From a virus (taxonomy: Duplodnaviria > Caudoviricetes): a stretch of 64,000 nt of DNA. Numbering within the stretch: position 1 is the first letter of the stretch; every line of letters starts with the position of its first letter. The notes below the pieces were generated by a model that saw nothing but the letters and a program-made list of their open reading frames with translations, made no database searches and had not been told where the DNA came from. The stretch is from IMG/VR virus record IMGVR_UViG_3300032233_002382, positions 1 through 64,000 of that record; one strand, 5' to 3'. Position numbers and translations under genes: made by a program. Positions 35,990 through 60,878 of the stretch are shown here, one piece after another.

Positions 35990-36421
35990 ATGACCCGCAA
36001 CAATCTCTCCACCCTCAACGACACCATGGCGGTGCTCTGCGAGGCGATCCCGCCCATCGTGGCTCAGCCGCCCCTCTATCCCTTCATCGGGGTCAAGGCC
36101 GTCAAGGCCCGCCTCGAGGCGGATCTGGTGGTCCAGCACGCCACCCTGGCGATGCTCTACCACCTGCAGACGGGTGATGAGCAGCAGGCCAGGGACACCC
36201 ACCACAAGAACCGTGCTGGCTTCATGAGCAGTGATGCGTTCACGGGCACCCGGTTGGCTGAGAAGCTGATTCTTGGTCTCGAGCTGGAGCCGGATGAGCT
36301 CGAGCGGGCCTCCCGCATTGCAACCAAGTACTCCAAGCAGCTCTCCATCCAGCTGCGGCGGGTGGCGATGCAGGAGAACCCCATGCTGGCGAGCTACGCC
36401 GTCACTTTCAGCATCAAGTAG
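35990..36421 (+). CDS. Family A copy 3
   Basis: Motif at 35910; GGAGCCGACC RBS. Confidence 0.85.
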   Translation: MTRNNLSTLNDTMAVLCEAIPPIVAQPPLYPFIGVKAVKARLEADLVVQHATLAMLYHLQTGDEQQARDTHHKNRAGFMSSDAFTGTRLAEKLILGLELEPDELERASRIATKYSKQLSIQLRRVAMQENPMLASYAVTFSIK

Positions 36422-41416: not shown

Positions 41417-42184
41417 TTAAAATCCTAGATCGTCTTCACCAAACCCAAGGTCATCAAATTCATCCTCGGACGGTTTCTTAGTGGATGATGGGTTTTGTTT
41501 CAACTTAGACTGGAATGGTTTATTGAGTCCAATAAGTGCCTCTTCGAGGTATCCCTTGAAAACGTCTTCTGATCTTTCTCCAACGGCGGTTTCAAGATCA
41601 TGGGTTGCAAGATAATCTTTAATCTTCTTCAAACCTAGTACCTTTTGAAGCACGTTATTTAGTGCCTTTTCAGGGGACATGGGTTTCTTCTTATCATACA
41701 ACATATCCAGGTAATACTTCTGGATTTCAGGGTGTTTTTCCAGCTCCGAGCGGATTAGAAGGATCATATCCTCAAGATCCTTCGGTCGACCTGAACGAAC
41801 TTTCAGTGCGGTCAGGGCGTGCTGGCTTATGACTGGGACTCCGTCTCGGATTGTCGGATCAGATAAGGCATCAGAAGGCAGGCCATCTGCAAAAAGAAAA
41901 TCGACCTCTATGCCGAGGTGTTCGGTTGACCAAATCGGCAATTTCCCGGAAGGCGTTTCGCTGGATTTGCCTCCTGGGAACAGACGTTTAATTTGCTGTT
42001 TGGATCTAGAATCCACCAAGATGTCTATATCTTGCGTGGTCCGTCCGCTTATGTAAGTTCCCATAGCGATGCCGCCGACCACAGCATGCGGGATCCGATT
42101 ACTAGTCAGTGTTTGCGAAATGTCCTTCACGACCTCTCGAAGGTTCTCGCCAACTTCTTCGTAAGCCGCATAACGTAAGATCAT
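41417..42184 (-). CDS. Nucleotidyltransferase-fold protein
   Basis: VVGGIAM...RTTQDIDIL; LKVRSGRPKDLED. Confidence 0.7.
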   Translation of the reverse strand: MILRYAAYEEVGENLREVVKDISQTLTSNRIPHAVVGGIAMGTYISGRTTQDIDILVDSRSKQQIKRLFPGGKSSETPSGKLPIWSTEHLGIEVDFLFADGLPSDALSDPTIRDGVPVISQHALTALKVRSGRPKDLEDMILLIRSELEKHPEIQKYYLDMLYDKKKPMSPEKALNNVLQKVLGLKKIKDYLATHDLETAVGERSEDVFKGYLEEALIGLNKPFQSKLKQNPSSTKKPSEDEFDDLGFGEDDLGF

Positions 42185-42197
42185 CCGGAGCCTCCAT

Positions 42198-43577
42198 ATG
42201 GAGAAACAATTAAAGATGTCTTACGGCGATCACCGGATGGTGGCTACCAAAACATTTGATCCCATGGCCGCAAATTTAACGATTCATCTTCATTGTGAAT
42301 CATGCAATAGTCACATCCAGTCGCGATATACCGAGTTTGAACAAGTCCTGAACCCTTCATTTTACGAAGACTTCTTCGAAAGCGCTTGCCGAATATTTCG
42401 AAAAACATTTCCTGAATCGTGTGATGAAACTAAAGTCAAACAAGTTCACGATTCTTGATGTACGGCAGAAGTCTCCAAAATCCGGGAAGACGGAATTCGT
42501 TCGGGTCTGGCACATACTGACGAAGTACATGGCATAGATTCAATTTGTTTTCGAATTACTCATGATGCACGGAGTCAGCTATCCAGTATTGAGTCGCGAC
42601 CTGTACCATAGTCTCGACTACCTGATCCACTGTCGGATTCGGCGGACACTTGGCGAGACAGGGTGTTCTTGCTTGCCAGCCAACGTCCTGAGTGATTCCA
42701 AGATCGCCCATTAGAGCTAAGTCATCGCCTGCTTGGCTCGAGAGCATACTTCCGAACCTCAAGAGCCACGTGCTTCGATCATTCAAGTCATCTTCCGTTG
42801 CTTCCACATTAACTTCCCATACTTCAAAAAGGTCTCCGTGACGTTCATTGAACGCTTTGGAGACCTTTCCGATAAACTCCTGGGTCACCACTGCTCCTTC
42901 CTCCAGTCCCGCTTAGTTTCACGGGACTTTCGGCGATCCTTCATGATGCGGGTACCAGCCTTTCCGGCCAGCACCATCTGCATCGCAATGTAATTTCGCG
43001 GCTTCTTGACTTCAATTCTCATCTCAAGCTTCGGCTTGTCCATTTGATCCTCCATCAACCAAACGAGCGAACGATCCAATTTCCGAATTCGTTTGACTGT
43101 GGTGTAATTTGTTGTATGGCAGAGAAGCGACCGATACTCGTCATTAAGGGTCAAGCGGCGCTTCCGTTTGCTGATATATGCACAAATAAGCGTCACGTAT
43201 CTTATCTGAGACCGATCTTTGAGTGTAATGCTCCTTCATGCGCTCCGAAAAAACTACACGCAGCTTAATAAATGCCTAGAATCGCACATTCGAAACGCCC
43301 TGGTAGTCTTCGTCGCAAACATAACCGCGAGCGGTTGATTAAAGCGCGTATTTTATTGAAAGAGAAAGAAATTCATATACGCGAAGTCGAACAGCTCACC
43401 GGGATCGGAGTAGGACAAACAACCCTGATGATCCAGGGTAAAGCCAGAATGGATCAAGTTACTGTTATGCTAATAGAGACGATCGCGAAGTATCCATCAA
43501 CGATGCGTCAGATTGAGCTCATGTGGCAAGGCCATACAATTGATGAAGTTGCGGCCATCATGGTTCATGAATCATGA
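42198..43577. CDS. Four small genes: 42198..42458(+), 42556..42891(-), 42885..43196(-), 43272..43577(+); three carry the C-terminal tag
   Basis: End VKQVHDS, ADSVHHE and AIMVHES; the last has an HTH-like IREVEQLTGIG segment. Confidence 0.6.
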
Positions 43578-44756
43578 ACTTGCCATGCTGCGTGTTCGTC
43601 GCAGTCTAGAGCTGTGTGAATTCCATCATAAATTTCGATCCTTGCGTCATTCGGTGGCTTGTCGTTCGCCAACCAAGCAAGGCGTCTATCAATATCAGAA
43701 CTCGTGCCTCCGCACTTACGACAAACCCAGTAGTCGCCTAGTCGGAGTTTCCCGATTTCAGATGGTACTTCATGCGGTTTAATATAGAACCACAAATGAG
43801 CCATTTCAAACAGTACTTATGCTTCCATCATTTCTCTTACGATTTTCTCATTCTTAACGTCGTCACAAGTTAATATAACGCACCCAGTAGTTGCGGCTCC
43901 GAAGAGAATAGTTATGTACATTCCACCATGTGCCATAGATCCGCATTTAGTACACTGACCACCAAACCGGTTCGAACGCACCCAGTGTCCGTAGTTTTCC
44001 TTTGAATGCTTTAAATTCCATACGACATCATAAACGAATCGAATTGGAGTCCATATGCGCCAATAACGCATATATGTCTCTTTATAAACCATGGTGAAAA
44101 TTAATCCGAGGAATGGACCAATTATGAAGACAATCATGAAGATCTCTTGAGTCATTCGATATCCGTTTATATTGGTGTTCACTCATGACTTATGGATCTG
44201 AGCTACCATGAGCTCATCGCATGTCATGTGGTTTCCTCCCCCGACCCATATTTTAGCTTCGTTTGGTGGTTTGTCTGAGACGAAATGGAACATCCAAGAT
44301 GCTATGTTCTTATGAGTTGCACTACACTTAGTACACTGCCATTCATTATGAGAACCCCTGTCGACTAATTCCCATTTATGGCTCATGAGCTCGTTACATA
44401 GCGAACAATGCAATCTCTGTCCAAACATTCTTTAGCTTCAATTCCATGCCGACATTTTTCCTGAACAAACAAATCATTCAGATTGTATGGCTCGTGAAGG
44501 AGATCTGCAATTGCATTTGCGATAAAGGCAAGTATGATTCTCACGATTTCATCACCTGGGCTAACACTATCTGATGGCAGTGGTAGAATGCTGCCTTACC
44601 GTGTCCGTCTATGATCGTTATCTGAAATTCCGGGAGTGGTTTACCGTAGTGTTGACATACTTTATATCCGCAGTTCTGACATCGATACCAAATCTCGCCA
44701 TACTCACTTTCGTCATCAGTCAGCTGCCAGTCATGATGTTCAAGATCCATGAACAA
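43565..44756 (-). CDS. HxW-CxxC-C Zn-finger microproteins, cluster 1 (43565..43804, 43817..44182, 44183..44386, 44541..44756)
   Basis: Shared H-x-W...C-x2-C...C + tag architecture. Confidence 0.7.
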
Positions 44757-45329
44757 ACGCTGCCTGACATTCGGGATCTTCGCAGTATCGAATATCCCGT
44801 GAATGTTTACATATGTTGTTCAGGGCCCTCATGATCCTAGCGTCTTCTTCTGCCTGTATTTGGAGCTTCATCTGATGTTCTAGATGCGACATAATATCAA
44901 CCGACACAGAATCGACCAAAGCATTCGATGTGGACTCCAGAACGATCTTTCTCAGTTTATTGATCATGAATCAACTCGACTATGCACGATTTATCGTCAC
45001 ATTTTTCTGCTTCTTTAAGATGCTTACATATCGAATACCTACCATATATGGATCCGAATAAAATCGATTTCGCATCATTTCGGATTAAATTAATTTCTTG
45101 TTCGAAGTGTTCATTCGTCGTGGATGTACTCAGCGACGCATTTAGGGTTATCGCATTCACCTGGTCTTTTATCATGTTCGCAGTTCCATTTCAGGCCGTA
45201 AATCAATGCGTCGTGTACGCTCGGTGGATACCTGTTCATATGTGCCTGACTATGCTTCTTAGCCATTTCAAGCCACTTCTTTTTGTCCTCTTCCGTCACT
45301 TCCGGGATCGGAAACCTGATCGAGGTCAT
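44383..45329 (-). CDS. CxH-x6-C-x4-C microproteins (44383..44544, 44740..44967, 44957..45175, 45111..45329)
   Basis: Identical ligand spacing in four ORFs; 44383..44544 found by manual translation. Confidence 0.7.
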
Positions 45330-46014
45330 TTAGGACTCCCACGACTCGGAGCATGTCGTCCGCAACCAGGTTCAGTTTATCATCCACGTCGGGAAAGCGC
45401 TCGCGCAGCAGCGGGAGCACGGTCTGCCGGAGCCAGACGCGGGTGTAGCGGTCGTTTGAGTTGCTCGGATCGGTTGCGGCCTCGAGCCGGTGGACGCCGC
45501 AGTACGCAGCGAGAGCGGAACGCGACACGCGCAGCAGCGGACGGAAGACGCGACCGGACAGCGGCGGCAACACGGCGAGCGAGCCAGCGCCCGACGCACG
45601 CAGCAGGCGGAGCAGCACCGTCTCCGCCCTGTCGTCGCTGTGGTGCGCGGTCACAACCCAATCAGCGCCGTACCGGATTCGGGCGTCATAGAGCTCGGTG
45701 TAGCGACCGTCCCTGGCTCGCGCCTGGATATTGCCGCCCGGCTCGACCTGGATTCGGCGAGTCTCGTAGGTGATCCCAAGAGACCTCGACAATTTCTCGG
45801 CGAGCTGAAGTTCTGAATCGGCTTCAGGACGAATCCCGTGATTCACTCCAACGGCTGCCACGACTTCGTGGCCGAGCTTCTTCGCTACGTGCGGGAATGC
45901 TTTAAGGAGGGCTTGGGAGTCAGGACCGCCGCTCACAGCCAAGACAAACTTCTGTGGATTCGAAAAAGATTCTTTCAGCGACTTCTCGATCGAGCCATTG
46001 ACCGTCATGATCAT
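45268..46014 (-). CDS. tilS: tRNA(Ile)-lysidine synthetase (short form)
   Basis: AVSGGPDS, VNHGIR, ARDGRY, TAHHSDDRAETVLLRLLR, RPLL, DPSN. Confidence 0.92.
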   Translation of the reverse strand: MIMTVNGSIEKSLKESFSNPQKFVLAVSGGPDSQALLKAFPHVAKKLGHEVVAAVGVNHGIRPEADSELQLAEKLSRSLGITYETRRIQVEPGGNIQARARDGRYTELYDARIRYGADWVVTAHHSDDRAETVLLRLLRASGAGSLAVLPPLSGRVFRPLLRVSRSALAAYCGVHRLEAATDPSNSNDRYTRVWLRQTVLPLLRERFPDVDDKLNLVADDMLRVVGVLNDLDQVSDPGSDGRGQKEVA

Positions 46015-46071
46015 ACCCCAAAATACAACGAGGCCCCCGTCGAATTCGACGGGGGCCTCGCAAAACTTCCG

Positions 46072-46449
46072 TTAGGCCTGGCCGACCTGAGGTGACATTC
46101 GAGGATCCGCAGCGATCATCTGTCGTGCGACCTCCATTCCGCGACCACGGACGATCACGCTCATGTAGTCGCCCGTCACGCCATACCGATCAAACGCGAA
46201 TTGCGTCTTGGTTCCACGCTTGATCAGTGGGAGATGACCGGCTCGGCGGAGAGACTCCACGTCAACTCCGCCTCGCTGGCCTCGCTTGTAGTCGTATCCG
46301 TCGAACTTCGCGACGTCCTCAAGGAACTCCTGGAAATCCTCCTCGGTCGTCACAACGGACGTCATCTTCCAAGGACCGGGATCCCCGACCGGGGACTTCG
46401 TGAGGACTTCGAACTCATGAACGCTAAAGGTATCCTGGCTCATCTGCAT
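46072..46449 (-). CDS. Hypothetical protein
   Basis: AAGGAG RBS; 125 aa. Confidence 0.7.
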   Translation of the reverse strand: MQMSQDTFSVHEFEVLTKSPVGDPGPWKMTSVVTTEEDFQEFLEDVAKFDGYDYKRGQRGGVDVESLRRAGHLPLIKRGTKTQFAFDRYGVTGDYMSVIVRGRGMEVARQMIAADPRMSPQVGQA

Positions 46450-46636
46450 CTCCTTAGATAAACTCTCGGGTGGTCTTCCCGTCGGGGTGGAATTGCACGA
46501 TAACGTCCTTCTTGCCGCTTGCGATCATGTTCATGGCGATCTCCCACTCGAGACTCGCCTCAGGAGGAGCACCGGGGTTGGAGAGGACTGACATGTAGAT
46601 CGGGATGCTCATCTTCTGCGATTGCACTACGCCTCC

Positions 46637-47026
46637 TTAGGGAAAACTAGCGGAATGGCCGCCAAGATCGGTGAACACCTTCGGGTCAATCCCCGGCTTC
46701 TGAGACTTCGCATCTGCCACAACGACTGTGCGGGTCTTATCTTGCATCACCTCACGCACCTTCTCGAGCACCTCCGGAAGAGCGCGCCGGACTTCGGAGA
46801 TGATGACGGTGGCGTCCGGAGACGTCGACCGGACCTCAGCCGAGAACGTTTCGACGTCCATCATATCGACCTCGAGCAAGATCGGCTCAATCCCCTTCTT
46901 CCAACATTCTTCCTTTACCATCATAACAGCTCCGGTCGAGCTGCCGGTCGTTACCAAGAGCGGTTCCCCTGGCTTCATTAGATCCCCGAGAGACGTTCCC
47001 TTGCCGTGGTCACATGACTGGCTCAT
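46637..47026 (-). CDS. Degenerate AAA+-like fragment or hypothetical protein
   Basis: Motif at 47091; VIISEVRRA resembles a Walker B region but there is no intact P-loop. Confidence 0.45.
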   Translation of the reverse strand: MSQSCDHGKGTSLGDLMKPGEPLLVTTGSSTGAVMMVKEECWKKGIEPILLEVDMMDVETFSAEVRSTSPDATVIISEVRRALPEVLEKVREVMQDKTRTVVVADAKSQKPGIDPKVFTDLGGHSASFP

Positions 47027-47112
47027 CAACACCTCCAACGGACGAGCGCCGCGCCCGCCCACACAAGGGACGAGCGCGGCGTCCGACTTCCAGATTTACT
47101 TCAGTGGTAGTT

Positions 47113-47640
47113 CTATCCTTTGTCAGTCTCATGGAGAATCTTCTCGATCAACGCCACCCGATACTTCTTTCTCTTAATCTCCTGAAGCTTACTAATTAAG
47201 AGTTGGTTCTGCTTGGCAAGCTCCTGATATTCCCAGACTTCTTTCGGAATCTCGTCATCGGGGACCCGAATTTTCATGCAGAGAGACTCGATGGGTGGTT
47301 TTTCCGCCACGAGTTCATATTCGTACTTACCGTCGAAAATCTCACTCTGACGGAAGTAAATATCGATCTCGGTACCAGGAATCACTAATTCGATCGAAGG
47401 AACGACTTTGGATAGGCTCTTCGGAATGTAGTCGAGAGGACCGTTTGAGTGGGCACCGACCTTGCCAAAGATGAGATTCATTTTCTTCTGAACTTCGGCG
47501 AGTTCCTGGTTGATCAGCTCCTCGGCCTTTGCCGCGATATAGTCGGCAATTTCGGATACGGTGAGCTTGCTCTCGGCATATGTTGCCATCAGGTTGGCCG
47601 TAATTCCATCAATCTTTTCAATCGCGCCAGTCTTCGACAT
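47113..47640 (-). CDS. Hypothetical early-type protein
   Basis: Motif at 47707; GGAGG RBS. Confidence 0.75.
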   Translation of the reverse strand: MSKTGAIEKIDGITANLMATYAESKLTVSEIADYIAAKAEELINQELAEVQKKMNLIFGKVGAHSNGPLDYIPKSLSKVVPSIELVIPGTEIDIYFRQSEIFDGKYEYELVAEKPPIESLCMKIRVPDDEIPKEVWEYQELAKQNQLLISKLQEIKRKKYRVALIEKILHETDKG

Positions 47641-47938
47641 ATCGAACCTCCAAAATGGTGACGCCCTGCGCGTCCCACAGAGGGAACGAGCGGGGCGTCC
47701 GACTTCCATATCTGATTTAAGGGATCCGATATTTCACTTCAATAAGTTAGTCGAACGGGTAGTAGTCTCGGATTCACACACCCATCAACCCTGAACTAGT
47801 GCCGGTCTTTCATTATACGTAAGTCGCTTCTCTCTGAAAGTGTAGTTGTCCCGGCATCACTTTCACATCAAAGAGTCGCCTAGGCTAGCCTTACGACCAG
47901 CCCGTACTAACTAGAGAACCATACATAGGGCCTCCTTT

Positions 47939-48599
47939 CTAAGAGTTATGGACTTCATAGACGGGTCGGTTTTTGATCTTATTCGCGATCGTGATTCCGA
48001 TCTTCCGAAGGTTCATCATTGATTCAGGCCTGAAGCGAACTCGATAAAACATACGAGGGTGTTGCTCAACCGTCATCACGTAAACCGAGACTTCGCGTTC
48101 ATCAACGCCGATCGAGAGGTTGTAGGAGTGATCATCTTTCGTGATTAGGATGTCCCATCCCTCATGAGCCTCCGCTCGCATCTTAAACCTAGGACGGTTG
48201 AAGACGGAGCGGAGGCTCGTCGAGACGTGATCCCTTAGAGCGTAGAATGGCTCGCGACTATGCAGCACTCTTCTTCGCCTTCTGGATTGCCTGAGCGTAC
48301 TTGGTCAGCTCGTAAACAGCTCTCTCAAACCGGCTGTGCGCTCGCGACCAATCCTGCTTACACTCGAGAGATTGCTTCTCCCAGTCAGCCCCCTTCTCCT
48401 TCTCGAAGCGCTTGAAGTGGTCGTTCTTGTCGTCGTGGGCGTTCACAAGTTCCTCGAGAAGAGAATCGAGTCCCTTGTCCAGCGCCTTGGCCTCGATCTC
48501 AAGACTGTAGAGTCGTGTGCTGACGGCCTTGTTCAGTTCAGTCGTCGCGTTACGGATGGTTTCGATCGCCTTCGTGATCATCTCGGTCTCGGTCATCAT
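47939..48599 (-). CDS. Two genes: 48258..48599 (coiled coil) and 47939..48268 (tagged, VYEVHNS)
   Basis: Motif at 48660. Confidence 0.7.
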
Positions 48600-48796
48600 A
48601 ACCCCCAAAGAGGGCGGGAGAATCCGCCCACACAACAAACGCACCGACGGCCCGATTTCCATACTGACTTCAGACTTCCCACCATTGAGCCAAGAACATA
48701 CCGATTAGTGACGTCCAAATACAAGACCACCGAAGGGTCTCATCGGTTGCAAATACACCGATAAAGAACATGAACGAAAGAATACCTTGAGTTCTC

Positions 48797-49539
48797 TTAG
48801 TCAACGTTAACCATCTGTTCAGCAATGACCCTTCGTTCAGTTCGCCTGTTCACTCGTGCAGTATCTCCATCCTTCCTCGCGTGGCACATTCCCGAGTGGT
48901 CTGAACAATTACACCCGAGGGCACTGCGCTTCCTGAACTTCCCAGGCTCCTCAGCGTCCTGCTTAGTGGACCAGCTGAACCAGGAATAGACCCGCTGGCG
49001 GAGCTTAGCCCGCTTGGCAACGATCTTCCCGTTCCGATGCCGACGCTCTGATCTATGCATTAGTCCTCCACTTGGACTTCATGAACCGAATAAGGAACGG
49101 TCTGAACGAACTCAATCATCTGTTCCCGACGCTCATCGCCCGCAGGAAGCAGACGATAAACGGTCTGGAAATAGCGAACAAATCGCTCAAGCTCCTCGTG
49201 CGATCCAGACTCCTTGATCGTGTTAAAATCTACCTCCATCGACTCTTCTTCCTCGTTATGGATCTCGATCGGAGTGATCAGGTCCTTGAACTGCTCCATG
49301 AACTTGATGCCGTCCTCTTGCATGAAGCTCCATACCCCGTCGTTCAGGTAAGTGATAAAATTGCTTGAGAGGACGAGATCCTCATTTGCTGCGTTACAGG
49401 CCTTGCGCGCCTTCTCCTCGCTCTTATAAAGAGAGCGCGGGCTTGAATAACCCTCTGTCGCGTTATAGTAGTTGTCGTCGTACTCGTAGTGGGTTTCAAG
49501 AACCGCGTACATCAACTGAGTGCTCTTCTTCTTAGCCAT
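48797..49539 (-). CDS. Two coupled hypothetical genes (49060..49539, 48797..49060)
   Basis: Stop-start coupling; GGAGG RBS. Confidence 0.7.
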
Positions 49540-49916
49540 TAGTCCACCACCTCAACATTGTGACGGGAAAGGGAAATGGTCATCGGACGGGGCTTGATCT
49601 CAGGAGCGCCCATCCACGGCTCCATCGGGAGAGAAGCAAGACACTTTTCAAGCGTCGGAATGTGGCCTAGATCTTCGATCACATGAGCCTCGAGGATATC
49701 ACGCACCGCAACGGTCTTTCCATCCGAGTTTGTGATATAGACCCCGAACTTATCTTGGCCTTGGTAGATCCCCCAGGCGTTATGGAGAATCATCCGGTGC
49801 CTCATGTCGGGCACCAGCATTTTCGTGTGGTCCATCCACTCATGAAGCGGGATGTAGTCGTCGAGCTTGCCGCCGAACTTACGAACAGAATTCTTGGCGT
49901 GCGTCAAAGGCTTCAT
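49539..49916 (-). CDS. DUF6915-like protein
   Basis: PLTHAKNSVRKFGG..DY..LH.W.D...RHR..LH...G...EAHVIEDLG.IP; motif at 49957. Confidence 0.6.
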   Translation of the reverse strand: MKPLTHAKNSVRKFGGKLDDYIPLHEWMDHTKMLVPDMRHRMILHNAWGIYQGQDKFGVYITNSDGKTVAVRDILEAHVIEDLGHIPTLEKCLASLPMEPWMGAPEIKPRPMTISLSRHNVEVVD

Positions 49917-49966
49917 GCGAACCTCCACCGGAGAAACGAGCGGAGCGACCGACTTCCACATTTACT

Positions 49967-51124
49967 TCAGTGCTCGTATGGGTGTGGAACGACAACAACT
50001 TCTCCATCTTCAGTCTCAACTTCCACCGATCGGTTTTCCAGCACCTTCATCTGCAACTTCGGGCTAGTTCCAGCAAAGGCTAGAATTAGGGCTTCATCTG
50101 GGTGGATGGCTTCGTGGTGACCTTCCCCGCACCACATGAACATCCGGATTGGTGGGAAAATGTCCATGTACTTAAGCTTCGGATGATCGATCTTGATGAC
50201 TAGACAGTCTTCAACCCGAGTCTCACCGACTTCCCAAGCGTATCCGTGAGTTTCAATCATTCCCTTGATGCAGGTGCGAGCCCAGCCAGGAAGAGACTTA
50301 ACGTCTTGCTTCTCGAACTTCATCCCGGAATTGACGAGCTCTTCGAACTTATCTGAAACTCTCGCGATCAGATCGTCGATTTCCTTGTCGGTCATCTTAG
50401 GCTCCCATCACATTCTCTACGCAGAATTCATCAAGTGCTTCCTGGAACACCTGCTGCCATTCTTCTCGAGTCAGCTTCGCTACGTTGCGCTGCCCCATCC
50501 AATGTTTAAGCCGGAGCTTTACTCCATCAGTTACTTGGGTCTTCTGGTATTGCCTCAAATTCGATACTTCAACTTCTTCAAAAGACTGGACCTGACCGCC
50601 AAGCCACCTAATATGGCCTTCGCTATACTTGTCTTTCCACTTCGTCGGATCGCCGTGAGTTAACAGGTGTTTCTCGCAAATCCCGATGATGGCTTCTTGT
50701 CGCCAACGACCGTTTGTCCGAACCTTGAAGAACTTCTTCCCATACTTCGGGCACGTACCGATCTTTTCGTGGTTGTACTTCTCGTTGAAGCTCTTCACGA
50801 GCACCTGACATCTGGTCGACATATTACCTCCTATTCCGAATGAGTCCGTCTAACTTCCTTATCATGACTACAGATCTTCATCAGATTCACATAGTGCAGA
50901 ACGGCTGCCATCGGAGCATGGTGGATTATCGCGACAAAGTACTCGCTCTCTTCTAGCTCGGAGAAATACTCCGCATCTTCATGGCCCGCATTCGGGCCAG
51001 ATATTACAACGAATCGGGCTCGAGGACTAGTCTCTTCGCCCTCGATACCGGTTACTAGACTATAATCATAATCGGTATCGACTATGATCGACCCGACACG
51101 AATCTCATCGGACGAAATAGGCAT
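49967..51124 (-). CDS. Three hypothetical genes (50831..51124, 50397..50822, 49967..50395)
   Basis: Motif at 51168; the first two end VRRTHSE and VENVMGA. Confidence 0.7.
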
Positions 51125-51176
51125 GCGCGGCTCCTCCCGTGGTGGGACGAGCCGCGCTGCCGATTTCCGGATTATT

Positions 51177-51491
51177 TTAATCGTGCCCGTATTCGATCAG
51201 AAAAACGCCTGCCATGGCTACGAACATTCCCACTAAAGACATAGGGGAGATGGATTCACCTTCTTTCCATACGACCCAACCAACCGCCATCAAAATGACT
51301 ACTGTTTCCCAGATAACTAGGGATGACCCAAGGTCATTCCCATCCTTCAGGATCTTCGCCCAAATGAAGGCGTCGATCACGTAAGAAGCAAGACCCCAAG
51401 CAATGTGAGTCTTGCCGAGTGACCAACGCTTTAAAAGGATATCACCAAGGACGTTAAATGCAGCGCCGAGAAAAATCCAAAAGAATTTCAT
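51177..51491 (-). CDS. SMR/DMT-like four-TM membrane protein
   Basis: 104 aa, four hydrophobic segments, GDILLK...GE.IS...LVG. Confidence 0.75.
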   Translation of the reverse strand: MKFFWIFLGAAFNVLGDILLKRWSLGKTHIAWGLASYVIDAFIWAKILKDGNDLGSSLVIWETVVILMAVGWVVWKEGESISPMSLVGMFVAMAGVFLIEYGHD

Positions 51492-51992
51492 TCGCAGGAT
51501 CGAGCAAACGAGACAGCTTCAGACTTAGCCGTCTCGAGGCTATTCGAACTCCCGTTACCGACTAAACAGCCGTTCCCCTGTTCGTCGAACTGCATGACGG
51601 TCCAAAAGTACTTGCCTCGAAAATTGGTAACCGAAACTTTTTTATCGCTAAAAGACGTTTCATAGTTCTCGCGATCATCCTGCGCCCAGTTCATTTCGAC
51701 TCCATCAGGTTTCGTGAATATCCTCTAAGATATCGTCCACAAAAGCTGGGCTCAACGGAATCTCTCCTAAAATCCTCTCGAATTGCTCGGGAGGCGCGCC
51801 AGCTTTCGCTAACGCTACCGCCTGAGCAATGCAAGCGTTCTTCATGTTCTGTGCGGCGAATTTATACGCCTCATCCGAGAGACGCTGATATTCCCGATAG
51901 GCGTTATGTAAATCAGCCTGAAGCTTCTGAATGGTTTGTTCTAACTTCATGGCTCGATTTTTGAGGTCGTTAAATTCGACTGCCGGTTTCAT
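51488..51992 (-). CDS. Two small genes (51705..51992 tagged LEDIHET; 51488..51694)
   Basis: Tight operon spacing. Confidence 0.65.
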
Positions 51993-51998
51993 TGGAAC

Positions 51999-52304
51999 TC
52001 ACCCTACTAAGAAAACTCCGATTATGAGAAACAATATCCCGCACACTTGCTTTATAGTCACCTCAGTACCAGAGATTATTGCTGCCACGTACCAGGATAA
52101 GTTGTAGCTTACATCAAGTACTGCCGAAGTGAGCAATAAACTGGCAAAAGGCCTTCGGAAAGCCTCTGCCCAGACCGCGACCATTCCTACTGAACCTATG
52201 AGAGTAAACCACCAAGGCAAACTGCCGGATCGGATGTGGTGAGCAACCGATCCGGCAGTCAGACCAAGGCATATCGTGATGAAGATGATTATCTGGAATC
52301 GCAT
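51999..52304 (-). CDS. SMR/DMT-like four-TM membrane protein
   Basis: 101 aa, four hydrophobic segments, ...QVCGILFLIIGVFLV. Confidence 0.7.
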   Translation of the reverse strand: MRFQIIIFITICLGLTAGSVAHHIRSGSLPWWFTLIGSVGMVAVWAEAFRRPFASLLLTSAVLDVSYNLSWYVAAIISGTEVTIKQVCGILFLIIGVFLVG

Positions 52305-52326
52305 CCAGACACTTTACGTGCCCGGT

Positions 52327-53487
52327 TTATTCGTAGTTGCGGGCCGCAATGAAAATCGGGAACCTCGGAACCTGATCCTTGGACAGCTCGAAGTATCGGA
52401 AGGTGACCTGGGTGCCGACCGGAGGTGGATTTCGTCGGATTGCGTCTGAGATCCCACTACCGATGTTGAACTGAACGCCGTTCGGGAGCTGGCAGATGAG
52501 TCCGCCGGTCATCCCCTTGAGGCGGCCCTTCCCTGGCATGTGTCCAATGACCTCGGCCTCGGCGTCGAAGAATGTCTTGACTTTCAGAAGCGAGTGACTG
52601 CGCTGCGCCTCGTACTTGGAGCCAGGCTCCCGAAGCATCAGACCCTCGCCTCCGAGCGCCTCAATCCGCTTCAGCTCGCTCTTGAGGTGTGCGAAGCCCT
52701 TACAGACCTCCTGATCCAGCATCAGAGCGTACGGAGCGTTCCGAATCAGCTCCTTGGCCTTCGCGATTCGTTCCTCGAACCCTCCAGGAACACTCGGAGC
52801 GTCGAAGACCTCATATTTGACCTGCTTCCATGCGTCGCCGGAGTTCAGGGTCTTCACAACCGAGATCGTTTCAGCGAACTTCCCACGACCGATAATCAGC
52901 TCTCCATCCAGAGGACAGTCGGGTAGACCTGCCTTAAACCACTCAGGGGCCGTGTAGATGTTCCCGTTGCGGGAGAGGAAATCCTTGCCGTCCCAATAGG
53001 CCCGAACCCCATCCCGCTTCTCGCTCAGCCACCATCCGGTCGGGTCCTGCTCGCCGTCCCATGAGTGTGCAAGGAGGACGGGAGGGCCGTAGAGGTCGGC
53101 CTTCTCATCCTGACGGAGCTTCCGCCCCTCCTTCGCGGCCCGCTCGAGCACCTCGCGAGCACGTTCGGGCGTGCAGGTGAACTTCTTGTCCGGTTCCGGA
53201 TTGACCGGATAGCCGTCCGAAGACACGGAGACGGCCTCCGGAGCCTTCTGGGAGACCGGAATGGCCTGAACCACCACCCCTCCCATATTGCGCGCAAGAC
53301 GGGCGGCCTCGTTTGCCTCGCCATGGACCTTCTTGGTGTGCTTACAGGTCTTCAGATCGACCTTCCCACCCGAATTGCGCCAGGCAGGGCAATCGCAAGA
53401 CCAGATTCGGTCGTCGTGATTCTTGACCACGTACGGATTCTTGCCCGATCCCTGAACTGTCGTGGACTCACCGGCTGCAAGCGACAT
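52327..53487 (-). CDS. lig: ATP-dependent DNA ligase with N-terminal SWIM zinc finger
   Basis: SCDCPAW...CKH; motif I SEKRDG; LDGEL; EGLMLR; LLKVK; RFP; motif at 53546. Confidence 0.93.
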   Translation of the reverse strand: MSLAAGESTTVQGSGKNPYVVKNHDDRIWSCDCPAWRNSGGKVDLKTCKHTKKVHGEANEAARLARNMGGVVVQAIPVSQKAPEAVSVSSDGYPVNPEPDKKFTCTPERAREVLERAAKEGRKLRQDEKADLYGPPVLLAHSWDGEQDPTGWWLSEKRDGVRAYWDGKDFLSRNGNIYTAPEWFKAGLPDCPLDGELIIGRGKFAETISVVKTLNSGDAWKQVKYEVFDAPSVPGGFEERIAKAKELIRNAPYALMLDQEVCKGFAHLKSELKRIEALGGEGLMLREPGSKYEAQRSHSLLKVKTFFDAEAEVIGHMPGKGRLKGMTGGLICQLPNGVQFNIGSGISDAIRRNPPPVGTQVTFRYFELSKDQVPRFPIFIAARNYE

Positions 53488-53555
53488 GATTCCTCCATAG
53501 GCGGACGCCCCGCCCACCAGCAGAACGGGCGGAGCGTCGGATTTCCAGATTCGAC

Positions 53556-55522
53556 TCACGAGTTGTGGATCTTATCGATAAACGTCTGTTCTCTTTCCCA
53601 CATCTTGATACAGATTCGATTGCAAAATGTCGTGAAACCGCAATGCTCAGTGCAATGACCCGCTACACACCGTTTATCCTTGAACGATCGGCAATTCTCC
53701 CTCGAGCAATAGTATTTCATCTTCCTAGATTCGGAATGGTAACAAGCCCCGAAACCTGCAATGAACGCAGTGATTGCAGCGAGGATTCCAATAGCAATCG
53801 CTTGACCTACCATCATTGCTTCATAACCCAAAGAACCGGTTCATCTCGAGCGAAATCCCAATAAACCTTCCCATCCTTTGTCGACCCTGTAACCTTCACA
53901 ATCTTAGACCAGATCGGGCGTCCGCCGGTCGAATTCCGATTCGGTAGAATCGTCACAATTTTCGTGTCACCGGACGACGTGCTCAGGTACCCGGAAGCCG
54001 TATCCCCGTGCTCATACCAGACCTTCACGCGTGTGCGGTATGAACGACCCGGATGTTTAATGAGATCGAGCATTACCTTGCAAAGGGACTCCGGCCATTC
54101 ATTGCGGAAAGTGATCCCATCGATGATCATGTGTTCATGACTTTCTCCAAGACATCTTTGACTTGATCCCAAAACACCATCTTCCGAACGGTCAACCGAA
54201 TGACGTCCGGGCGAAGCCATTTCCAGGTTTTAGCCTTCTGAGTCTTAGTGATAGCGGGAAGAGTAAGTTCGTTTTTCGATTTTGGGCAGAGGTAACCGGA
54301 TTCGTGAGTCCCGTCCGAATAATGAACAGTGACCCAAATCGGAAGGTTCTCGGTCTGCTGAATTACGAAGAAGGAGACACGCTCCTTCAGCTCGTCTGGC
54401 CACTCATCAAAGAATGAGAGGTCAGACGCTTTCACAATGTTTACTCAACCTGTTAGCCAGGTTCTGAATAGCTTCCTGTGGAGTCTTACCGGTTGTCTGA
54501 ATTCCGACACACGCCGCAACCCACCCGTCCGGCGTCCTTGCAACCACGACCGGTCCAGTCCGGTCGAGCCTAATATCATCCAAGTCAACATTCATCTCAG
54601 GACTCCTCATAAGCTTTCAGCGCGGCCAGATATGGCTCCGATTTTTTAATGGCGTCTTCGATGAACGCTAAATACCTACCAGGTGGGGTTAGAACTCGAC
54701 CACTATCGTCTTGAGCTAGAATGTCCCTCTCTGGCTCATTGATACCTACGACGGCGTTTGCGGTGAACTGAATGCCATCCATCACTCCCTTCACAGTGAA
54801 GGAAGGAGTATCGATCGGGTCCAGTGTCTTGATGAACTCGGGCGATTTCAGATCAGCATCGGTCAGTGCGTAGTCATCCTTGAAGTTACGTTCGATGGTA
54901 CTGATGCTTAGTCTCATTTAGTGCTCCTTGATTCGCTTGCCATCACCGATCCAAAACATCCCAACCCCGTTCGAGCGGTCGAGCCACTCGTCCAGATTGG
55001 CGTGAAGGAAAGCACGCCATTCGGTATCGGTCATGCCCTTCGAATCATGCTGAGGTGGGCAGATGTCCGAATGGACGCTCTCCCCGTCCTCGTTGAGATA
55101 CTCGATTTCTGCGTGAACTTCGGCCATGTGTGCAACCTCCACCCAACGAACGAGCGGAGCGACCGATTTCCGGATTTGACTTAAGCTTCCATGACTTTCT
55201 TGACTTTCTTTAAACTTGGGCAGTCATCAATGATCTTTGATATCTGTTCGGTCGGATCTTGAGTATAGAAATAATAGTGGGCAAGAGACCCTATCATAAA
55301 TATCACTTCATAAAGCGATTTCTGACTGCCTAATATGTACCCGCGAATGAATCCCAGTCTTGTGGCTCTAGAAATATCGCCGCTACCGGCATCGGATAAC
55401 ACGTATCCTGGGACAGCTTCTATAGCTTCTTCAAAAGTCTCGCCGAGTCCGACGCCGATATCCTTAGCCAACAAGCGCTCGTACTGGTTTATACCGTGAA
55501 GGAAGACCCTTATCTGCGGCAT
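53556..55522 (-). CDS. Run of small genes: 55181..55522, 54918..55127, 54597..54917, 54422..54610, 54127..54435, 53813..54220, 53556..53831
   Basis: Motifs at 55564 and 55171; four end in the tag; 54127 and 53813 share W..L...V.V.Y..G....GYL. Confidence 0.7.
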
Positions 55523-55621
55523 CAAACACCTCCACAGACCGAACGAGCGGAGCGGTCGACTTCCAGATTTGACTCAAATAAGCTGATGGCCCGTCACCTA
55601 ATCCGGTGACGGGCCATCAAT

Positions 55622-55698
55622 TGGTAGGTCCCCGGTGACTTGAACACCGAACCCCCTGATTATGAGTCAGGCGCTCTAACCTGTTGAGCTAGGGACCC
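55622..55698 (-). tRNA. tRNA with CAT anticodon, probably Ile2 (lysidine type)
   Basis: GGGTCCC TA GCTC...CCTGA CTCATAA TCAGG...TTCAAGT...GGGACCT A CCA; TilS encoded in the window. Confidence 0.85.
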
Positions 55699-55740
55699 AA
55701 ACTTCTACTTGTCGAACTTTACATCTGAGGAATTTCCGTT

Positions 55741-56079
55741 CTACTCATCATCCTCTTCATACTCGTCGTCTTCATCCTCTTCTTCTTCGATCAAGTCGTC
55801 TTCCGTATAACTATCGGCGAAACATTCATCACAAATCCGTCCATCCTCGACGACTTTTGCCTTCTTCGCCTTCGCTAATCCCTTGAATGCCTTGTCGCAG
55901 ATGGCGCAGTGCGAGCAAGTCTCACAGAGCTTCTTCCCGATTGACGCTTCAGCATCACAGAGCGCACACTCTTCAGGTGCTATCGACTCGTCGTCTGTAT
56001 CGCTTCCTTCATCTTCATCTTCAAGACTCTCAAGTTCTTCGTCTCGGTCGATCTCTTCGGTTTCGCGCTTACGACCCAT
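55741..56079 (-). CDS. Highly acidic protein with two CxxC-CxxC units
   Basis: D/E-rich; CALC, CETC, CAIC, CDEC. Confidence 0.75.
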   Translation of the reverse strand: MGRKRETEEIDRDEELESLEDEDEGSDTDDESIAPEECALCDAEASIGKKLCETCSHCAICDKAFKGLAKAKKAKVVEDGRICDECFADSYTEDDLIEEEEDEDDEYEEDDE

Positions 56080-56083
56080 ATGG

Positions 56084-56296
56084 TCACCTCGTTTGGACGT
56101 CCCGAGCCATAGAAATCGGAAAATAAGTGTTGATCAAAAGACCCTTATCTTCTCGGCTCAACGTTACCGTCATCAGATCCGGATCGTAAGTCACCAAGTG
56201 ACCAAAGGCACGGCGACCATCAGACAGCTGGACGTCCACGTTTTTACCCACGAGCTTCGCAAGACCTTGAGGAGTCTGCCATTCACCGTTCTGCAT
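56084..56296 (-). CDS. Sm/LSm-like (Hfq-fold) protein
   Basis: LAKLVGKNVDVQLSDGRRAFGHLVTYDPDLMTVTL matches the Sm1 pattern. Confidence 0.65.
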   Translation of the reverse strand: MQNGEWQTPQGLAKLVGKNVDVQLSDGRRAFGHLVTYDPDLMTVTLSREDKGLLINTYFPISMARDVQTR

Positions 56297-56340
56297 TTAA
56301 ATCCCCTTTAGGGGTTAGAAGTGAGTCATGCTCGTTTAAA

Positions 56341-58706
56341 TCACGAGCCATTGATTTTACTTACAATGATCTCTTCGCAGGTTCCCGTATGTCTTAAATC
56401 GCCTTTTACGATACGATCAGGTTCTGGCGTAGATCCATCATGAACAACTTCGGTAACTCCGCAGTTCAGGCATTTCCACAAGTTATAACGAGGCGGGGGT
56501 CTTTTGGTTCGGTTCACCCAATCATGAGGCATGAACTTGCTCCGCCTGCTTCTCCTCGCAGGTAAGCCACTTACCCCCATTACCCTGAACCAGCATCCCT
56601 GAATGCGGGCTCTGGTCCAGGTTAATCATCATCGTAGAACCACAATTGCGGCAATGGTACCGCTCCCAGTAATTGTCAGGGGAACTGTCCGTAATCGACC
56701 ATCGATGACCCATGTGAGCCTCCACGGACCGGACGAGCGGAGCGGACGACTTCCAGATTAGCTTCGATGAACACTCTCGGCTTGTTTCTCTTCGCAAGTC
56801 ATCGGCGGTCCGTTATGATAACTAGACACGAGCTCTTCCCCGTCAGGAGGTTCATGAATCTTATAGATTACTGATCCGCATGAAAGGCATTTATATCTGT
56901 AGTGTTCTTGGCTTGTTCGGCCTTGTCCTTCCCACTTCCATTTATGAGACATTCACGACTCCATCACGTTCTTCGCAACCGCCTCACTACAGGACATGTG
57001 AATTTTCTGAAATGGTATGTTCCCGTACCAGAATTTGTAATGAGGACTGGGCTTCTTTCTTTGATGCCATTCGTGATCACAATTCGTACATTTCCAATAC
57101 GAGCAAGCATTCGTCTCTATCCACACCCAACTATGCATCTTGGATGTTCTCCACCATTTTCTCTTTACAATTGAGCAGCTTTTTCCGGTCTTTCGATAAG
57201 GAGAGTCCTGTGGGCTTGGGCGGTGTAGGATCCATGTAGCTAGAAGCGCGAGAATCACAACGGGAGCAAATCCAGAAATGAGTTACCCTATCGTCCTCGG
57301 TAGGGCCCTCAAACCCTCGATAAACCCAGTCATGATTCGTGGACATCAGCGGCTTGAGCCTCCATACACGTCATGAACGTGGCGACGCGTACATGGTCTC
57401 TATATATCTCCGCACTCATAGGACTTGGAATGCCTTCCCGACATCGAGTGAGGCTATGACAGTTCTGACACTCCCACCATCCGGACTTCGCACCGGACTT
57501 AATGCTTGGATCAGTATAGCGCTTCCAGTTATGATTCATGTACTGACCTCACGGTCATTAGTTCTTGGATTTCTTCACATGAAACATCTTTAGCATCTCT
57601 AAAACTAAGCTTAAAATCTTCGCTAGGTTTCCCAGATTGCGTCCACTGGGAACCGCAGTTATTACAACGCCACAGGGTGTCCCACCCGCTATTCGTAAAA
57701 TTCAAGATCTTAGTGACTGGTAACCAGTTATGATTCATGGATCAGCCTAGCCTGAAGTTCTTCACAAGTCAATTGGCCGAGTCTGATACCAACTGAGACC
57801 AAGAGTACTGAATCGGGCGGTTCATCATCCATCTCCCCAATCCCCCATTCAAGGCACTTCTGACACCGGAATTCGAACTGTCCGAACTTATTCCGACCAT
57901 CATATTTCCACTCATGAGGCATGAAGGTTCCTGACCTGAATTTCTTCACATGTCATTTTGACGGTCTTGGTCGGGATCTTCATCTCTGGATCAGGGTCCG
58001 GTGCACTTTGATGGGTTCTGGTATAGCAACCGCATTTTTCGCAATGGAATGTAACCGTGGTCGAATGAGAGGGCCACTCGTGACACTGCCAATCATGAGG
58101 CATGTACTTCTCTCACAATATTGAGTTCCGACATTTCATTACACTGAAGGAACGCACCCGTCTGATAATCGAACACTTTCTCAGTCGGATCAGGCTTGCT
58201 AGCGTGGAACGACCAGTGATCGCACTTCTTGCACCACCAGTAACCGCCAAGTTCAATATATCTATGACGATTGGACCGATTCGGCGAGAAGAAGGTTCGA
58301 AACCAGTTCAACCATCCGTTTAGCTGAAGCTTCATCTCGGGTGTTACCTTCTATGAAGTGGCCATAACCTTGTAACGCATACTTCCAGATGGAATCCTTG
58401 CTCCAGACCGAGGCATTGCAACCATCATCACTTACATAGAAGAATCTACCAGAACCAGGATCATATTGCCATCTAGGATTCTTGAACATGATACACTTTC
58501 ATGAGATGGCAGTCATGGAAATCCAGTGTGAATCGGTTCGGATGCTCCAGTCGACAAGGCTGAAAGTATTTTACCCCATTATCCTCGGCCTGCTCGAACA
58601 AAACAGGTCGGCCGGGCGTCGGATAGACGTCCCCGACCCAGTAAGTTGCACAACTCCGACACATCCACACTCGATTCAGATTGGTTTTGATCCAGGTGTG
58701 CCTCAT
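56341..58706 (-). CDS. HxW-CxxC-C Zn-finger microprotein array, cluster 2 (11 members plus tagged 58262..58489)
   Basis: 56341..56532, 56522..56713, 56758..56952, 56953..57138, 57131..57346, 57330..57539, 57529..57738, 57728..57922, 57912..58103, 58093..58335, 58473..58706. Confidence 0.8.
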
Positions 58707-59185
58707 TAGACTCCCCCATACTTCTTCTCCATCTGGTCTAGCCACTTAAATAACGCGTCGTTTGGCTTACTGTAAGCGTAATAGTCCGTTTCGTGTTCAG
58801 GTGAACTCGGACTCGCGTGCTTCCACCGGCCAGGGAACTTGATGACCTCACCGTCATCATAAGTCTTCTCGTGTGGTTCCAAGATATATTCGACGGGCTC
58901 ATTGCAGACCGAGCACCAGGAGCCAATTAAATTCGACACATTCTCGATTTCCGAGGGAAGAATCTCGTTAAGCTCTTCAAGAGGCTGGACGGTTCCGAAT
59001 GGCGGACCGTTATCATAATGATATTCCTGAAAGACGAAGTGGCGACCGAATTTCTCTCGAATTCCATTGAATCCGTTTTCAGCTTTATTAAAGACACCGA
59101 ACTTTAAGTTCCTTGACGCGATGCGATATAAGACTCGATCCTTACAATCTTCTCGCTTGATGTATCCAGGCATGGTCCTACTCAT
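58706..59185 (-). CDS. Hypothetical protein
   Basis: 159 aa, WCSVC. Confidence 0.7.
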   Translation of the reverse strand: MSRTMPGYIKREDCKDRVLYRIASRNLKFGVFNKAENGFNGIREKFGRHFVFQEYHYDNGPPFGTVQPLEELNEILPSEIENVSNLIGSWCSVCNEPVEYILEPHEKTYDDGEVIKFPGRWKHASPSSPEHETDYYAYSKPNDALFKWLDQMEKKYGGV

Positions 59186-59683
59186 TCTGAAGATTTCGGA
59201 CCATCATCTGGTCACAGTCGTGGAAATTAGTAAACTGAATCTTAGCGGAACTTAATGGTCTGCAGCAATAATAAATGTCCATCCCATCCATCTCTTTTAT
59301 GCCTAGTCCAATTGTCATAGTTCGGTTCGGAAGGCGGTTACCAAGCCACTTCGTCTTACACTGGTTACAAATCCATGTCGAATGATATGCACTAAGTTCT
59401 TCCCATTTATGAGCTCGCATGCTCAAGCCTGATTAACATGCAAAGTCGCCATGAAACCGCAGTCGCGGAATTCACTTACATCGAACTGGTGTGGAACATG
59501 CATCCCAACTTCGTAGTAGGAAACGCCCCCAGTCTGAGAGACTGTTCCCTGCACATTCTTCACCGTGGTCGGGTAGCTCGATCCACGATACCTGGTTCCG
59601 CAATCCGAGCAAATGAACACACGAGAATGGATGCTGCCCTGTGATAAGTCGGGACCAGATTTCTTCCATCGGTGTTTCTTCAT
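59178..59683 (-). CDS. Two more Zn-finger family members (59423..59683, 59178..59426)
   Basis: HRW/HKW...CxxC...DC + tag; motif at 59745. Confidence 0.75.
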
Positions 59684-59758
59684 TATTCACCAACACGCCA
59701 GCGCGGCGGCCCCCATGATAGGAACGCGCCGCGCCGCTGATTTCCGTGTATGATTTAG

Positions 59759-59932
59759 CTATTCCGCCTGAGACGGTTTCTCAGGCCTCACCATACAAAA
59801 GCGGCAATTAGGATCTCTACACTGGGCCTCTAGCCACTTGTCGCACGGGACGCAATAGTATGCGTCATGTCGATCGTTCCGGATGACTTTGGGTTTTGCG
59901 CAACCGCATTCAGGATAGAATTTAGGCATCAT
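59759..59932 (-). CDS. Cys-rich 57-aa protein (not in ORF track)
   Basis: ...DAYYCVPCDKWLEAQCRDPNCRFCMVRPEKPS. Confidence 0.7.
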   Translation of the reverse strand: MMPKFYPECGCAKPKVIRNDRHDAYYCVPCDKWLEAQCRDPNCRFCMVRPEKPSQAE

Positions 59933-60793
59933 TATCATCCATTGGATCTGGGAGACCGCGAATCACCCACGCACACTCGTCGGCTCCGTGGGCGGTCAAA
60001 GACTCGTGTGGATGAGCGAGAGCCGACCGACATTTCATGGCCACAAGGTCGCTTGCCTGTGCTGCCGCATCCCGCATCGCTTTAACGCCTCGTTTGAAAG
60101 CTAACTTCTCATAGTCCTTGCGGAGAGCGATCATCTCGGACGTCATCTTATTCACGTCTTCTTGAGAGTACGTCAGATCTACGGGCTCTGCAAGAACTTC
60201 ATTGATTTTGTGCTCAAGTTCGCCAATGTATCGAACGCCCATATACTCACCAAGAACGAGACGGTTCGAAGCGATAACGCCCTGGGCTTCTTCAAGAGTT
60301 TCCCTTATCTTATCACTCATCTTGAACATTCCTCACTGACATGTATTCGCAGTCGTGGAAATTCCATTCTACGATATAGACACCAGCTCTTACATCTGGA
60401 ATTCTATGAAATTGCGACATCTCAGTACCCTGAAAATGCTTGGTGTAACACTGTCCCTTGCGAGGCTTTTCCATCCCGTAGGCGGTGGAATCACATTCAT
60501 TGCAAATCCAAAACAAATCACGCTCTGGAGCTTTTCTCCATTTGTGCGTTTTCATCCGATTTTGCCTCCAAGTAGGACTTCAGAAGATTGACATCTTGGA
60601 TTATCAAATCTATCTTCTTCTGATTCGGTGGCTTCCCGTACGAACCATCCTGGTGACACTGAATCTGGAATTCCTGCTCCCGAACCATATCACATACTAC
60701 CTTTCGATAGGCTTCCATCAGCTCATCGGGTGAGAATCGAACTGACTTATCGTACATGGCAAAATGAAGATAATTCTCAACGGTCGGCTTCAT
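59922..60793 (-). CDS. Three genes: 60518..60793, 60313..60555 (Zn-finger family, VRNVQDE), 59922..60329
   Basis: Motif at 60838. Confidence 0.7.
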
Positions 60794-60878
60794 GTGATCA
60801 AACCTCCACCGGAGGAACGAGCGGAACGTCGGATTTCCATATTTAGGTTTTTATATACTGTTACACCTGGAGGATATC

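Follow-up and report, generated by a model that had tools for sequence, protein, structure and literature searches.

Expansions of small zinc proteins are already known from jumbo phages. In Bacillus phage G, a lineage-specific expansion of a small zinc ribbon has produced about 35 copies, and Iyer et al. (2021; PMC7824862) proposed that these act as specific transcription factors, modulate RNA polymerase or coat DNA. The locus described here belongs to an uncultured freshwater jumbo phage, represented by the IMG/VR virus record IMGVR_UViG_3300032233_002382 (307,777 bp; CheckV completeness 72%), and the first 64,000 nucleotides of that record are referred to below as the window. On its minus strand the window encodes, in two arrays, a family of mini-proteins, mostly 61-86 aa once trimmed to the Met preceding an H-x-W motif, which share one His and three Cys (HCCC) as putative metal ligands. 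The likeness to phage G is that of a jumbo phage with dozens of diverged small copies, apparently zinc-binding and unassigned in function, that can be read as specificity variants. Unlike the phage G ribbons, the present family has the HCCC arrangement, fixed N- and C-termini, a junction between genes that codes in two frames, and mostly acidic members; when the complete phage G record was searched with the family profile, the best match had E 0.067 over profile positions 2-28 only, and hence no homology was detectable. The family, its HCCC mini-fold, its fixed termini and the two-frame junction, with its use as a crossover site, were not found in the curated libraries or the literature searched.

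The preliminary description of the window listed 18 open reading frames (ORFs) in two arrays, and all were recovered in their places on the minus strand, with four at 43565-44756 (array 1) and 14 at 56341-60555 (array 2). Leave-one-out profiles were run against the complete six-frame set of 5120 phage ORFs and recovered 16 members at E 1e-6 to 2e-11. The member m02 was marginal at E 0.01, despite a counterpart about 74-76% identical in a relative, and m17 was missed (E 11). Seventeen of the 18 ORFs are one protein family, while m17 (43817-44182; 121 aa) can be called only a possible member because its leave-one-out profile did not recover it. This doubtful ORF carries an N-terminal membrane helix and the pattern G-H-W, C-x2-C, T-C-D-D, and scores 33 bits only against a model built with it. 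The count of 18 was also too low. A family profile search found seven further members outside the window in the same record, five of them in a third array (genome positions 259035-260282), one at 122348-122527 (plus strand) and one as the C-terminus of 65949-66398, giving a phage total of about 24.

Array 2 starts with a long-loop subfamily, termed B, consisting of m01 (60313-60555; 80 aa; leave-one-out E 4.8e-9), m02 (59423-59683; 86 aa), m03 (59178-59420; 80 aa from its ATG; E 9e-10) and m04 (58473-58706; 77 aa; E 9e-7). It continues with m05 (58093-58335; 80 aa; E 1.6e-8), m06 (57912-58103; 63 aa), m07 (57728-57922; 64 aa; E 1e-7), m08 (57529-57738; 69 aa; E 2e-11), m09 (57330-57539; 69 aa; E 9e-9), m10 (57131-57346; 71 aa; E 1.8e-9), m11 (56953-57138; 61 aa; E 1.9e-7), m12 (56758-56952; 64 aa; E 1.3e-8) and m13 (56522-56713; 63 aa; E 1.2e-10), and ends with m14 (56341-56532; 63 aa; E 1e-7), whose tail reads I-N-G-S. 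Array 1 holds m15 (44541-44750; 69 aa from its ATG; E 2e-8), m16 (44183-44386; 67 aa; E 1.7e-10), the doubtful m17 and, at its end, m18 (43565-43804; 79 aa; E 2e-6). Most members are head-to-tail as first described, but array 2 is not purely so because four unrelated genes interrupt it, at 59922-60329, 59759-59938, 58706-59185 and 58262-58489.

In a 17-sequence alignment, W5, C21, C24, P37 and C52 are invariant and H3 is present in at least 90% of sequences; all six positions are invariant when the alignment is widened to 30 sequences, distant metagenomic homologues among them. Among 145 short homologues, H3, W5, C21, C24 and C53 are conserved in 100%, P36 in 99%, E55 in 86% and W19 in 83%. 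The conserved residues are all either putative metal ligands or part of the core, in keeping with the conserved scaffold and variable loops proposed earlier. Two details of that proposal needed amendment. The conserved Pro is present but lies 11-20 residues past C-x2-C and not about 10, and the H-x-W near the start has an exception in m05, where H-R-Y stands behind a 22-aa extension.

Structure prediction with AlphaFold2, using the 17-sequence alignment as input, gave a confident model of m06 with three strands and a helix and a mean predicted local distance difference test score (pLDDT) of 91.3. The strands span residues 5-8, 16-21 and 27-31 and the C-terminal helix residues 52-62; C-x2-C falls in the turn between strands 2 and 3, His3 within the two residues preceding strand 1, and Cys52, the fourth putative ligand, is the first residue of the helix. 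The preliminary description had treated this helix as a tag appended to the protein. The tail is indeed conserved, but the idea of a separable tag is not supported by the model, since a helix that starts at the last Cys belongs to the fold. For the long-loop subfamily B, a model of m01 from a 10-sequence alignment had a pLDDT of only 57, and it reproduced the first three strands while the remainder was uninformative. A single zinc site is the simplest reading of the four invariant putative ligands. The N-terminal His of M-x-H-x-W, the C-x2-C knuckle and the Cys at the helix start would together hold one metal ion, and two Trp, one Pro and the hydrophobic face of the helix would make up a tiny core. 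The remaining positions would then be free to differ, with 8-25 residues in loop 1 and 25-45 in loop 2. An amino-terminal copper- and nickel-binding (ATCUN; X-X-His) site for copper was also considered at the N-terminus and dropped, because residue 2 is often Pro, Ser, Gly or Ala, which would lead to removal of the Met and loss of the register.

Searches for known families were carried out against sequence and structure libraries. No match above the family cut-off was obtained in Pfam-A, NCBIfam or PHROGs; at E <= 1, any one Pfam family was matched by at most two of 30 members and any one NCBIfam family by at most three of 30, and the PHROG matches, all at E >= 0.024, were scattered. Structure searches of the PDB, BFVD, AlphaFold DB (AFDB) clusters and the ESM Atlas, together with a Foldseek-independent PDB scan, returned only sub-threshold generic zinc knuckles, and a sequence-profile search of the PDB found no family, its zinc-knuckle matches lying at E >= 0.018. 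The sub-threshold resemblances were to the zinc knuckles of the RNA polymerase subunits RPA12 and Rpb9, and of Elf1, Rpp21 and L37ae/eL43, and to rubredoxin-like knuckles. A match to AcrVIA2 (7xmw) was likewise sub-threshold (E 0.025, with no passing stretch) and was treated as noise.

Comparison with described zinc folds gave partial likenesses. The family shares with the classical zinc ribbon a C-x2-C knuckle in a beta-hairpin with an aromatic residue before it, and residues 3-37 align in Foldseek, although all scores are sub-threshold (Foldseek E > 1 in the PDB and 0.2-0.6 in BFVD/AFDB; best VIA Z 2.7). A classical ribbon has two knuckles with four ligands, whereas here only one C-x2-C is conserved and the other ligands would be His3 and Cys52; with only one knuckle present, the family is not a classical zinc ribbon. 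In the model, the knuckle C21/C24 and the helix starting at C52 fit a treble clef, but the helix supplies only one ligand and the fourth would be His3, just before strand 1, which makes the resemblance loose. Subunit D of hydroxyarylic-acid decarboxylases (ShdD/VdcD/BsdD; PF26358; PDB 7ae4, 7ae5, 7ae7), a zinc mini-protein of about 60-75 aa that is a purely protein-binding subunit, was the only protein to surface in four different searches (Foldseek template modelling (TM) score 0.44; VIA Z 2.5 over 51 residues; Atlas TM 0.50 over 55 residues; PDB profile E 0.059), with scores that are all within noise and provide a lead for shape only. The present family differs from it in having other conserved motifs and no decarboxylase partner gene nearby, and its members gave no Pfam match to PF26358.

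A profile search of 1.84 billion cluster representatives identified 288 clusters at E <= 1e-3, nearly all of 58-90 aa with full-profile coverage and including a few tandem fusions. The members that were checked all came from metagenomes, were unnamed or labeled "hypothetical protein", and lay on contigs that resemble phage small-gene regions. On one of these, a 92.8-kb phage contig (L014) unrelated to the source phage, at least 12 family members lie inside about 9 kb, and array expansion is therefore a recurrent property of the family. Four metagenomic proteins of 113-160 aa (P0022, P0029, P0045 and P0096) consist of two fused family domains, exactly the product expected if a junction between neighbouring genes loses its stop codon. 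Four other profile matches (P0010, P0016, P0030 and P0059) were rejected as members, being BspA-type leucine-rich-repeat surface proteins with a repeated W-x-C-x2-C that cover profile positions 11-44 only.

Relatives of the source phage itself were sought in several ways. A tblastn search with m07 against 50,697 GenBank phages gave zero matches, and a single-protein search of IMG/VR for relatives of m13 found none. A large protein of the window matched only a methyltransferase domain in Synechococcus phages, and therefore no cultured relative is known. Short fragments of m06-m10, 97-99% identical, were found in three other freshwater or groundwater runs; this comparison, of contigs of four sequencing runs including the source contig, contained no bridging joints and is uninformative on copy-number variation.

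An 18-kb contig from a different sample (L008) is syntenic with array 2 and contains orthologues of ten members, with 55-94% amino-acid identity. The ratio of nonsynonymous to synonymous substitution (omega), calculated by the Nei-Gojobori method (NG86), was 0.06-0.18 for seven of these pairs: 0.06 for m01 (88% identical), m02 (74%) and m09 (94%), 0.13 for m13 (81%), 0.16 for m08 (91%) and m12 (83%), and 0.18 for m10 (73%). Three further pairs yielded no omega because synonymous sites were saturated; the orthologues of m04 and m11 are 68% and 66% identical. Neighbouring non-family genes compared with L008 in the same way had omega values of 0.03-0.35. With dS at 0.3-2.3 and synonymous sites near saturation, all these omega values are approximate, but pN is far below pS everywhere, and the genes are therefore coding and constrained, with loops that are conserved per paralogue. 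When pooled by region, omega was 0.07 in the head, 0.13 in both loop 1 and the tail, and 0.14 in loop 2.

The best paralogue within the genome is 23-40% identical for each member and no pair exceeds 40%, which excludes a recent proliferation. The best match in another contig is 55-88% identical for most members, as for m07, which is 59% identical to P0017. The paralogues are old and individually conserved in related phages under purifying selection. The term hypervariable, used in the preliminary description, does not suit them, as the differences are those between old paralogues, and the loops, for which dN/dS had been proposed as a check, are under purifying selection at an omega of about 0.13. 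Diversification by a diversity-generating retroelement was also considered and is not supported: the 308-kb record (72% complete) contains no reverse transcriptase (RVT_1), the loops are conserved between orthologues, and no near-identical repeat pairs were found.

The repertoire differs in size between the window and L008, and the breakpoints lie where the tail of one gene meets the head of the next, which agrees with the earlier suggestion that recombination had a part in the expansion. Present in the window only are m03 and a block made up of the 58262-58489 gene with m05, m06 and m07; present in L008 only are one extra member between m11 and m12 and two after m14. These insertions or deletions are unpolarised, so that gain and loss are not distinguished. 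The junction position of the breakpoints was established in three cases at the nucleotide level, and for the m14 tail by protein alignment. The L008 orthologue of m04 corresponds to the window gene as far as the tail His codon, then continues with the m07 tail, making a hybrid, and is followed by m08. The L008 orthologue of m02 has an m03-like tail and precedes the gene that succeeds m03 in the window, and the extra L008 member is flanked by two ATG-CCT-CAT head words. The L008 counterpart of m14 (L008 positions 5708-5869), which the two extra members adjoin, ends after T-C-E without the tail helix and is the sole truncated copy seen.

The tight junctions carry the word CATG-MM-TCAT-RA-YTGG, which is read in two frames, as H-[AE]-S-stop and as M-[PN]-H-x-W. 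An example is CATGCCTCATGATTGG at 58089-58109 (minus strand), which encodes the m05 tail H-A-S-stop and the m06 head M-P-H-D-W. A 21-nt direct repeat family has five copies in array 2, at 56518, 57326, 57525, 57908 and 58089. Members would be translationally coupled, the tightest junctions encode the tail of one and the head of the next in 14 nt, and crossover in the repeated junction may occasionally add or remove whole cassettes in frame. The overlap explains the conservation of the tail only partly, because m12, m16 and m18 have no overlapping successor yet keep V/I-H-x-S, and because the tail is kept as [VI]-M-[ED]-S in L014, where there is little overlap. Family-wide, position -3 is M, H or Q (145 homologues). 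An exact search of IMG/VR with a 16-nt junction word returned nine contigs, none encoding a family member, and these were set aside as chance matches.

PeSL-type mobile regulatory cassettes and the hyperplastic regions of T4-type phages, reportedly described by Arbiol and co-workers in 2010, resemble this arrangement in that short repeats at gene boundaries allow gain, loss and shuffling of small accessory genes among relatives. They differ from it in two respects: here the repeat lies inside coding sequence and is read in two frames, and all cassettes belong to one protein family.

The function of the family has to be weighed against this background. Net charge among the window members ranges from -5 to +4 (pI 4.8-9.2), and among the 145 homologues the median is -1.3 with 70% net negative; neither the 30-sequence nor the 145-homologue alignment contains a conserved basic patch or other conserved surface residues. 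This mostly acidic or neutral charge, together with the lack of conserved surface residues, favours a zinc scaffold with paralogue-specific binding surfaces. On the reading we prefer, to which we assign roughly even chances, these are phage-specific single-domain zinc mini-proteins in which a common scaffold displays numerous distinct and stable surfaces for binding, most probably of proteins. About 24 surfaces, all different and built on the one scaffold, would make up a fixed repertoire of the phage, and during infection each copy would bind a protein target of its own, from either host or phage. The analysis documents membership of the family, a fold model, purifying selection and the gain and loss of cassettes; that the proteins bind zinc, when they are expressed and that they bind proteins, each with a different target, are what we infer here, and a role in host takeover or counter-defence is a guess based on context. 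Several observations weigh against the preferred reading. With omega far below 1, the loops show nothing of an arms race at the divergence sampled; the tail [VI]-[HMQ]-x-S stands at a fixed distance from the C-terminus throughout the family and could mean one common partner; the PHROG, Pfam, NCBIfam and PDB searches revealed no likeness to a known anti-defence or host-takeover protein; and the case for metal binding consists of four invariant residues. A bolder version, which we regard as unlikely, is a natural cassette system of binders with about two dozen specificities, all fixed, by which the phage would neutralise as many different host proteins of defence or regulation. In it, the 14-nt junction would end one gene, start the next, supply the first metal ligand and act as the recombination site, all at once, and would permit in-frame swaps of binders between co-infecting phages.

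The fixed tail is the starting point for another explanation, in which the constant parts would be the functional ones and the C-terminal tail would dock all members to one machine (an adaptor, a protease reading a degron, or a capsid-loading site), the loops mattering little. Its position is the same in all 145 homologues, it is kept in L014, whose genes mostly do not overlap, and the same ending occurs in a second small Cys/His family (44383-45329) and in a few other proteins. In the model, however, the helix is a built-in part of the domain, its first residue being the fourth putative ligand, and in the source phage H-x-S-stop is partly forced by the overlapping M-x-H-x-W start. The loops are constrained as strongly as the tail, which is unexpected if they are irrelevant, and docking leaves the upkeep of about 24 diverged copies unexplained, so that we judge this explanation improbable. 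Nucleic-acid-binding zinc ribbons, acting as specific transcription factors, RNA-polymerase modulators or DNA-coating proteins, have the precedent of phage G (PMC7824862), and the sole structural or sequence resemblances found, all sub-threshold, are to the RPA12, Rpb9, Elf1, Rpp21 and L37ae knuckles. Against them stand the charge distribution and the missing basic patch given above, a single knuckle where a classical ribbon has two, and the lack of a detectable homologue in the phage G genome; the charge range also argues against one nucleic-acid target shared by all members, an outcome that the preliminary description had named as contrary to its proposal. Such a role seems distinctly doubtful. 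The least probable account by far is that of decaying or selfish filler, namely neutral or untranslated ORFs propagated only by a duplication-prone repeated junction. Although cassette number varies between close relatives and a functional annotation was found nowhere, the low omega values do not fit neutral evolution, which the preliminary description had also raised; the 288 clusters retain both the reading frames and six invariant residues, the divergence of the paralogues leaves no room for recent proliferation, and only one truncated copy, the L008 counterpart of m14, was seen. Neutral or untranslated ORFs are largely excluded by the selection data.

Much of what is unknown in jumbo-phage genomes consists of small accessory proteins, and it is among these that counter-defence factors usually lie. 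The family adds a new, widespread (at least 288 clusters), well-folding domain of 60 aa with clear boundaries, a testable putative metal site and about 24 natural variants per genome. If the variants bind different targets, they would chart the weak points of the host and offer binder engineering a compact natural scaffold; if the members instead share one partner via the tail, they would be a sign of a docking or turnover system not yet described from these phages. The two-frame junction is a clean example of overlapping genes constraining protein termini and guiding cassette exchange.

The members appear to belong to long operons in which small accessory genes share one strand and follow a promoter-like motif specific to the phage. 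This motif, of about 45 nt and of the form AAATC-TGGAA-R-TCG..CGCTCCGCTCGT, is often accompanied by a GC-rich hairpin and then by GGAGG and ATG, and is likely a phage-specific promoter or 5' leader. Allowing up to 3 mismatches, a search of the first 80 kb gave 23 matches, of which about 20 remain once doubtful ones are removed, spanning 14117-60838 and reaching genome position 79399. The matches that were read are on the same strand as the following gene, and the motif is kept in L008 too. One copy heads the array-2 operon (60803-60843, match at 60817-60838) and another lies between m12 and m13 (56719-56759, match at 56733-56754); other clear copies are at 49936-49957, 55150-55171 and 55543-55564, all on the minus strand. 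Translation of the motif in frame produces false N-terminal extensions (e.g., W-K-S-V-A-P-L-V) on several ORFs. Matches to sigma-70-type promoters were no commoner than in shuffled sequences. Strong hairpin terminators delimit the units, with a terminator-like hairpin downstream of array 1 at 43422-43439 (minus strand), and motifs resembling a Shine-Dalgarno sequence precede 15 of 23 starts, against a background of 27%.

The operon containing array 1 is headed by a TilS-like PP-loop ATPase (PF01171, E 2.5e-44; 45268-46014, minus strand). The 308-kb record also encodes many tRNAs, seven of them in the window, as well as ThyX, a PurA/PurZ-like enzyme and a DNA ligase. Directly upstream of array 1, the second small Cys/His family occupies 44383-45329 (minus strand) with four genes of 53-75 aa; its invariant features are H28 and C-x-H-x6-C-x4-C, its tail is [VI]-H-x-[SQE], and it has no Pfam match. 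In a profile comparison of the two families, the last eight residues align and nothing more. Three proteins with differing N-terminal parts, at 42174-42455 (plus), 53556-53831 (minus) and 55181-55525 (minus), end in a Cys and then ..[VI]-[HM]-x-[SA], like the tail of the main family. On the plus strand, three paralogous ORFs at 14060-14695, 21520-22014 and 35933-36421 lie in segments of 57-64% GC within a region of about 48% GC. They have no Pfam matches, L014 holds homologues of them twice, at 36-45% identity, and they may be a mobile or recently acquired element.

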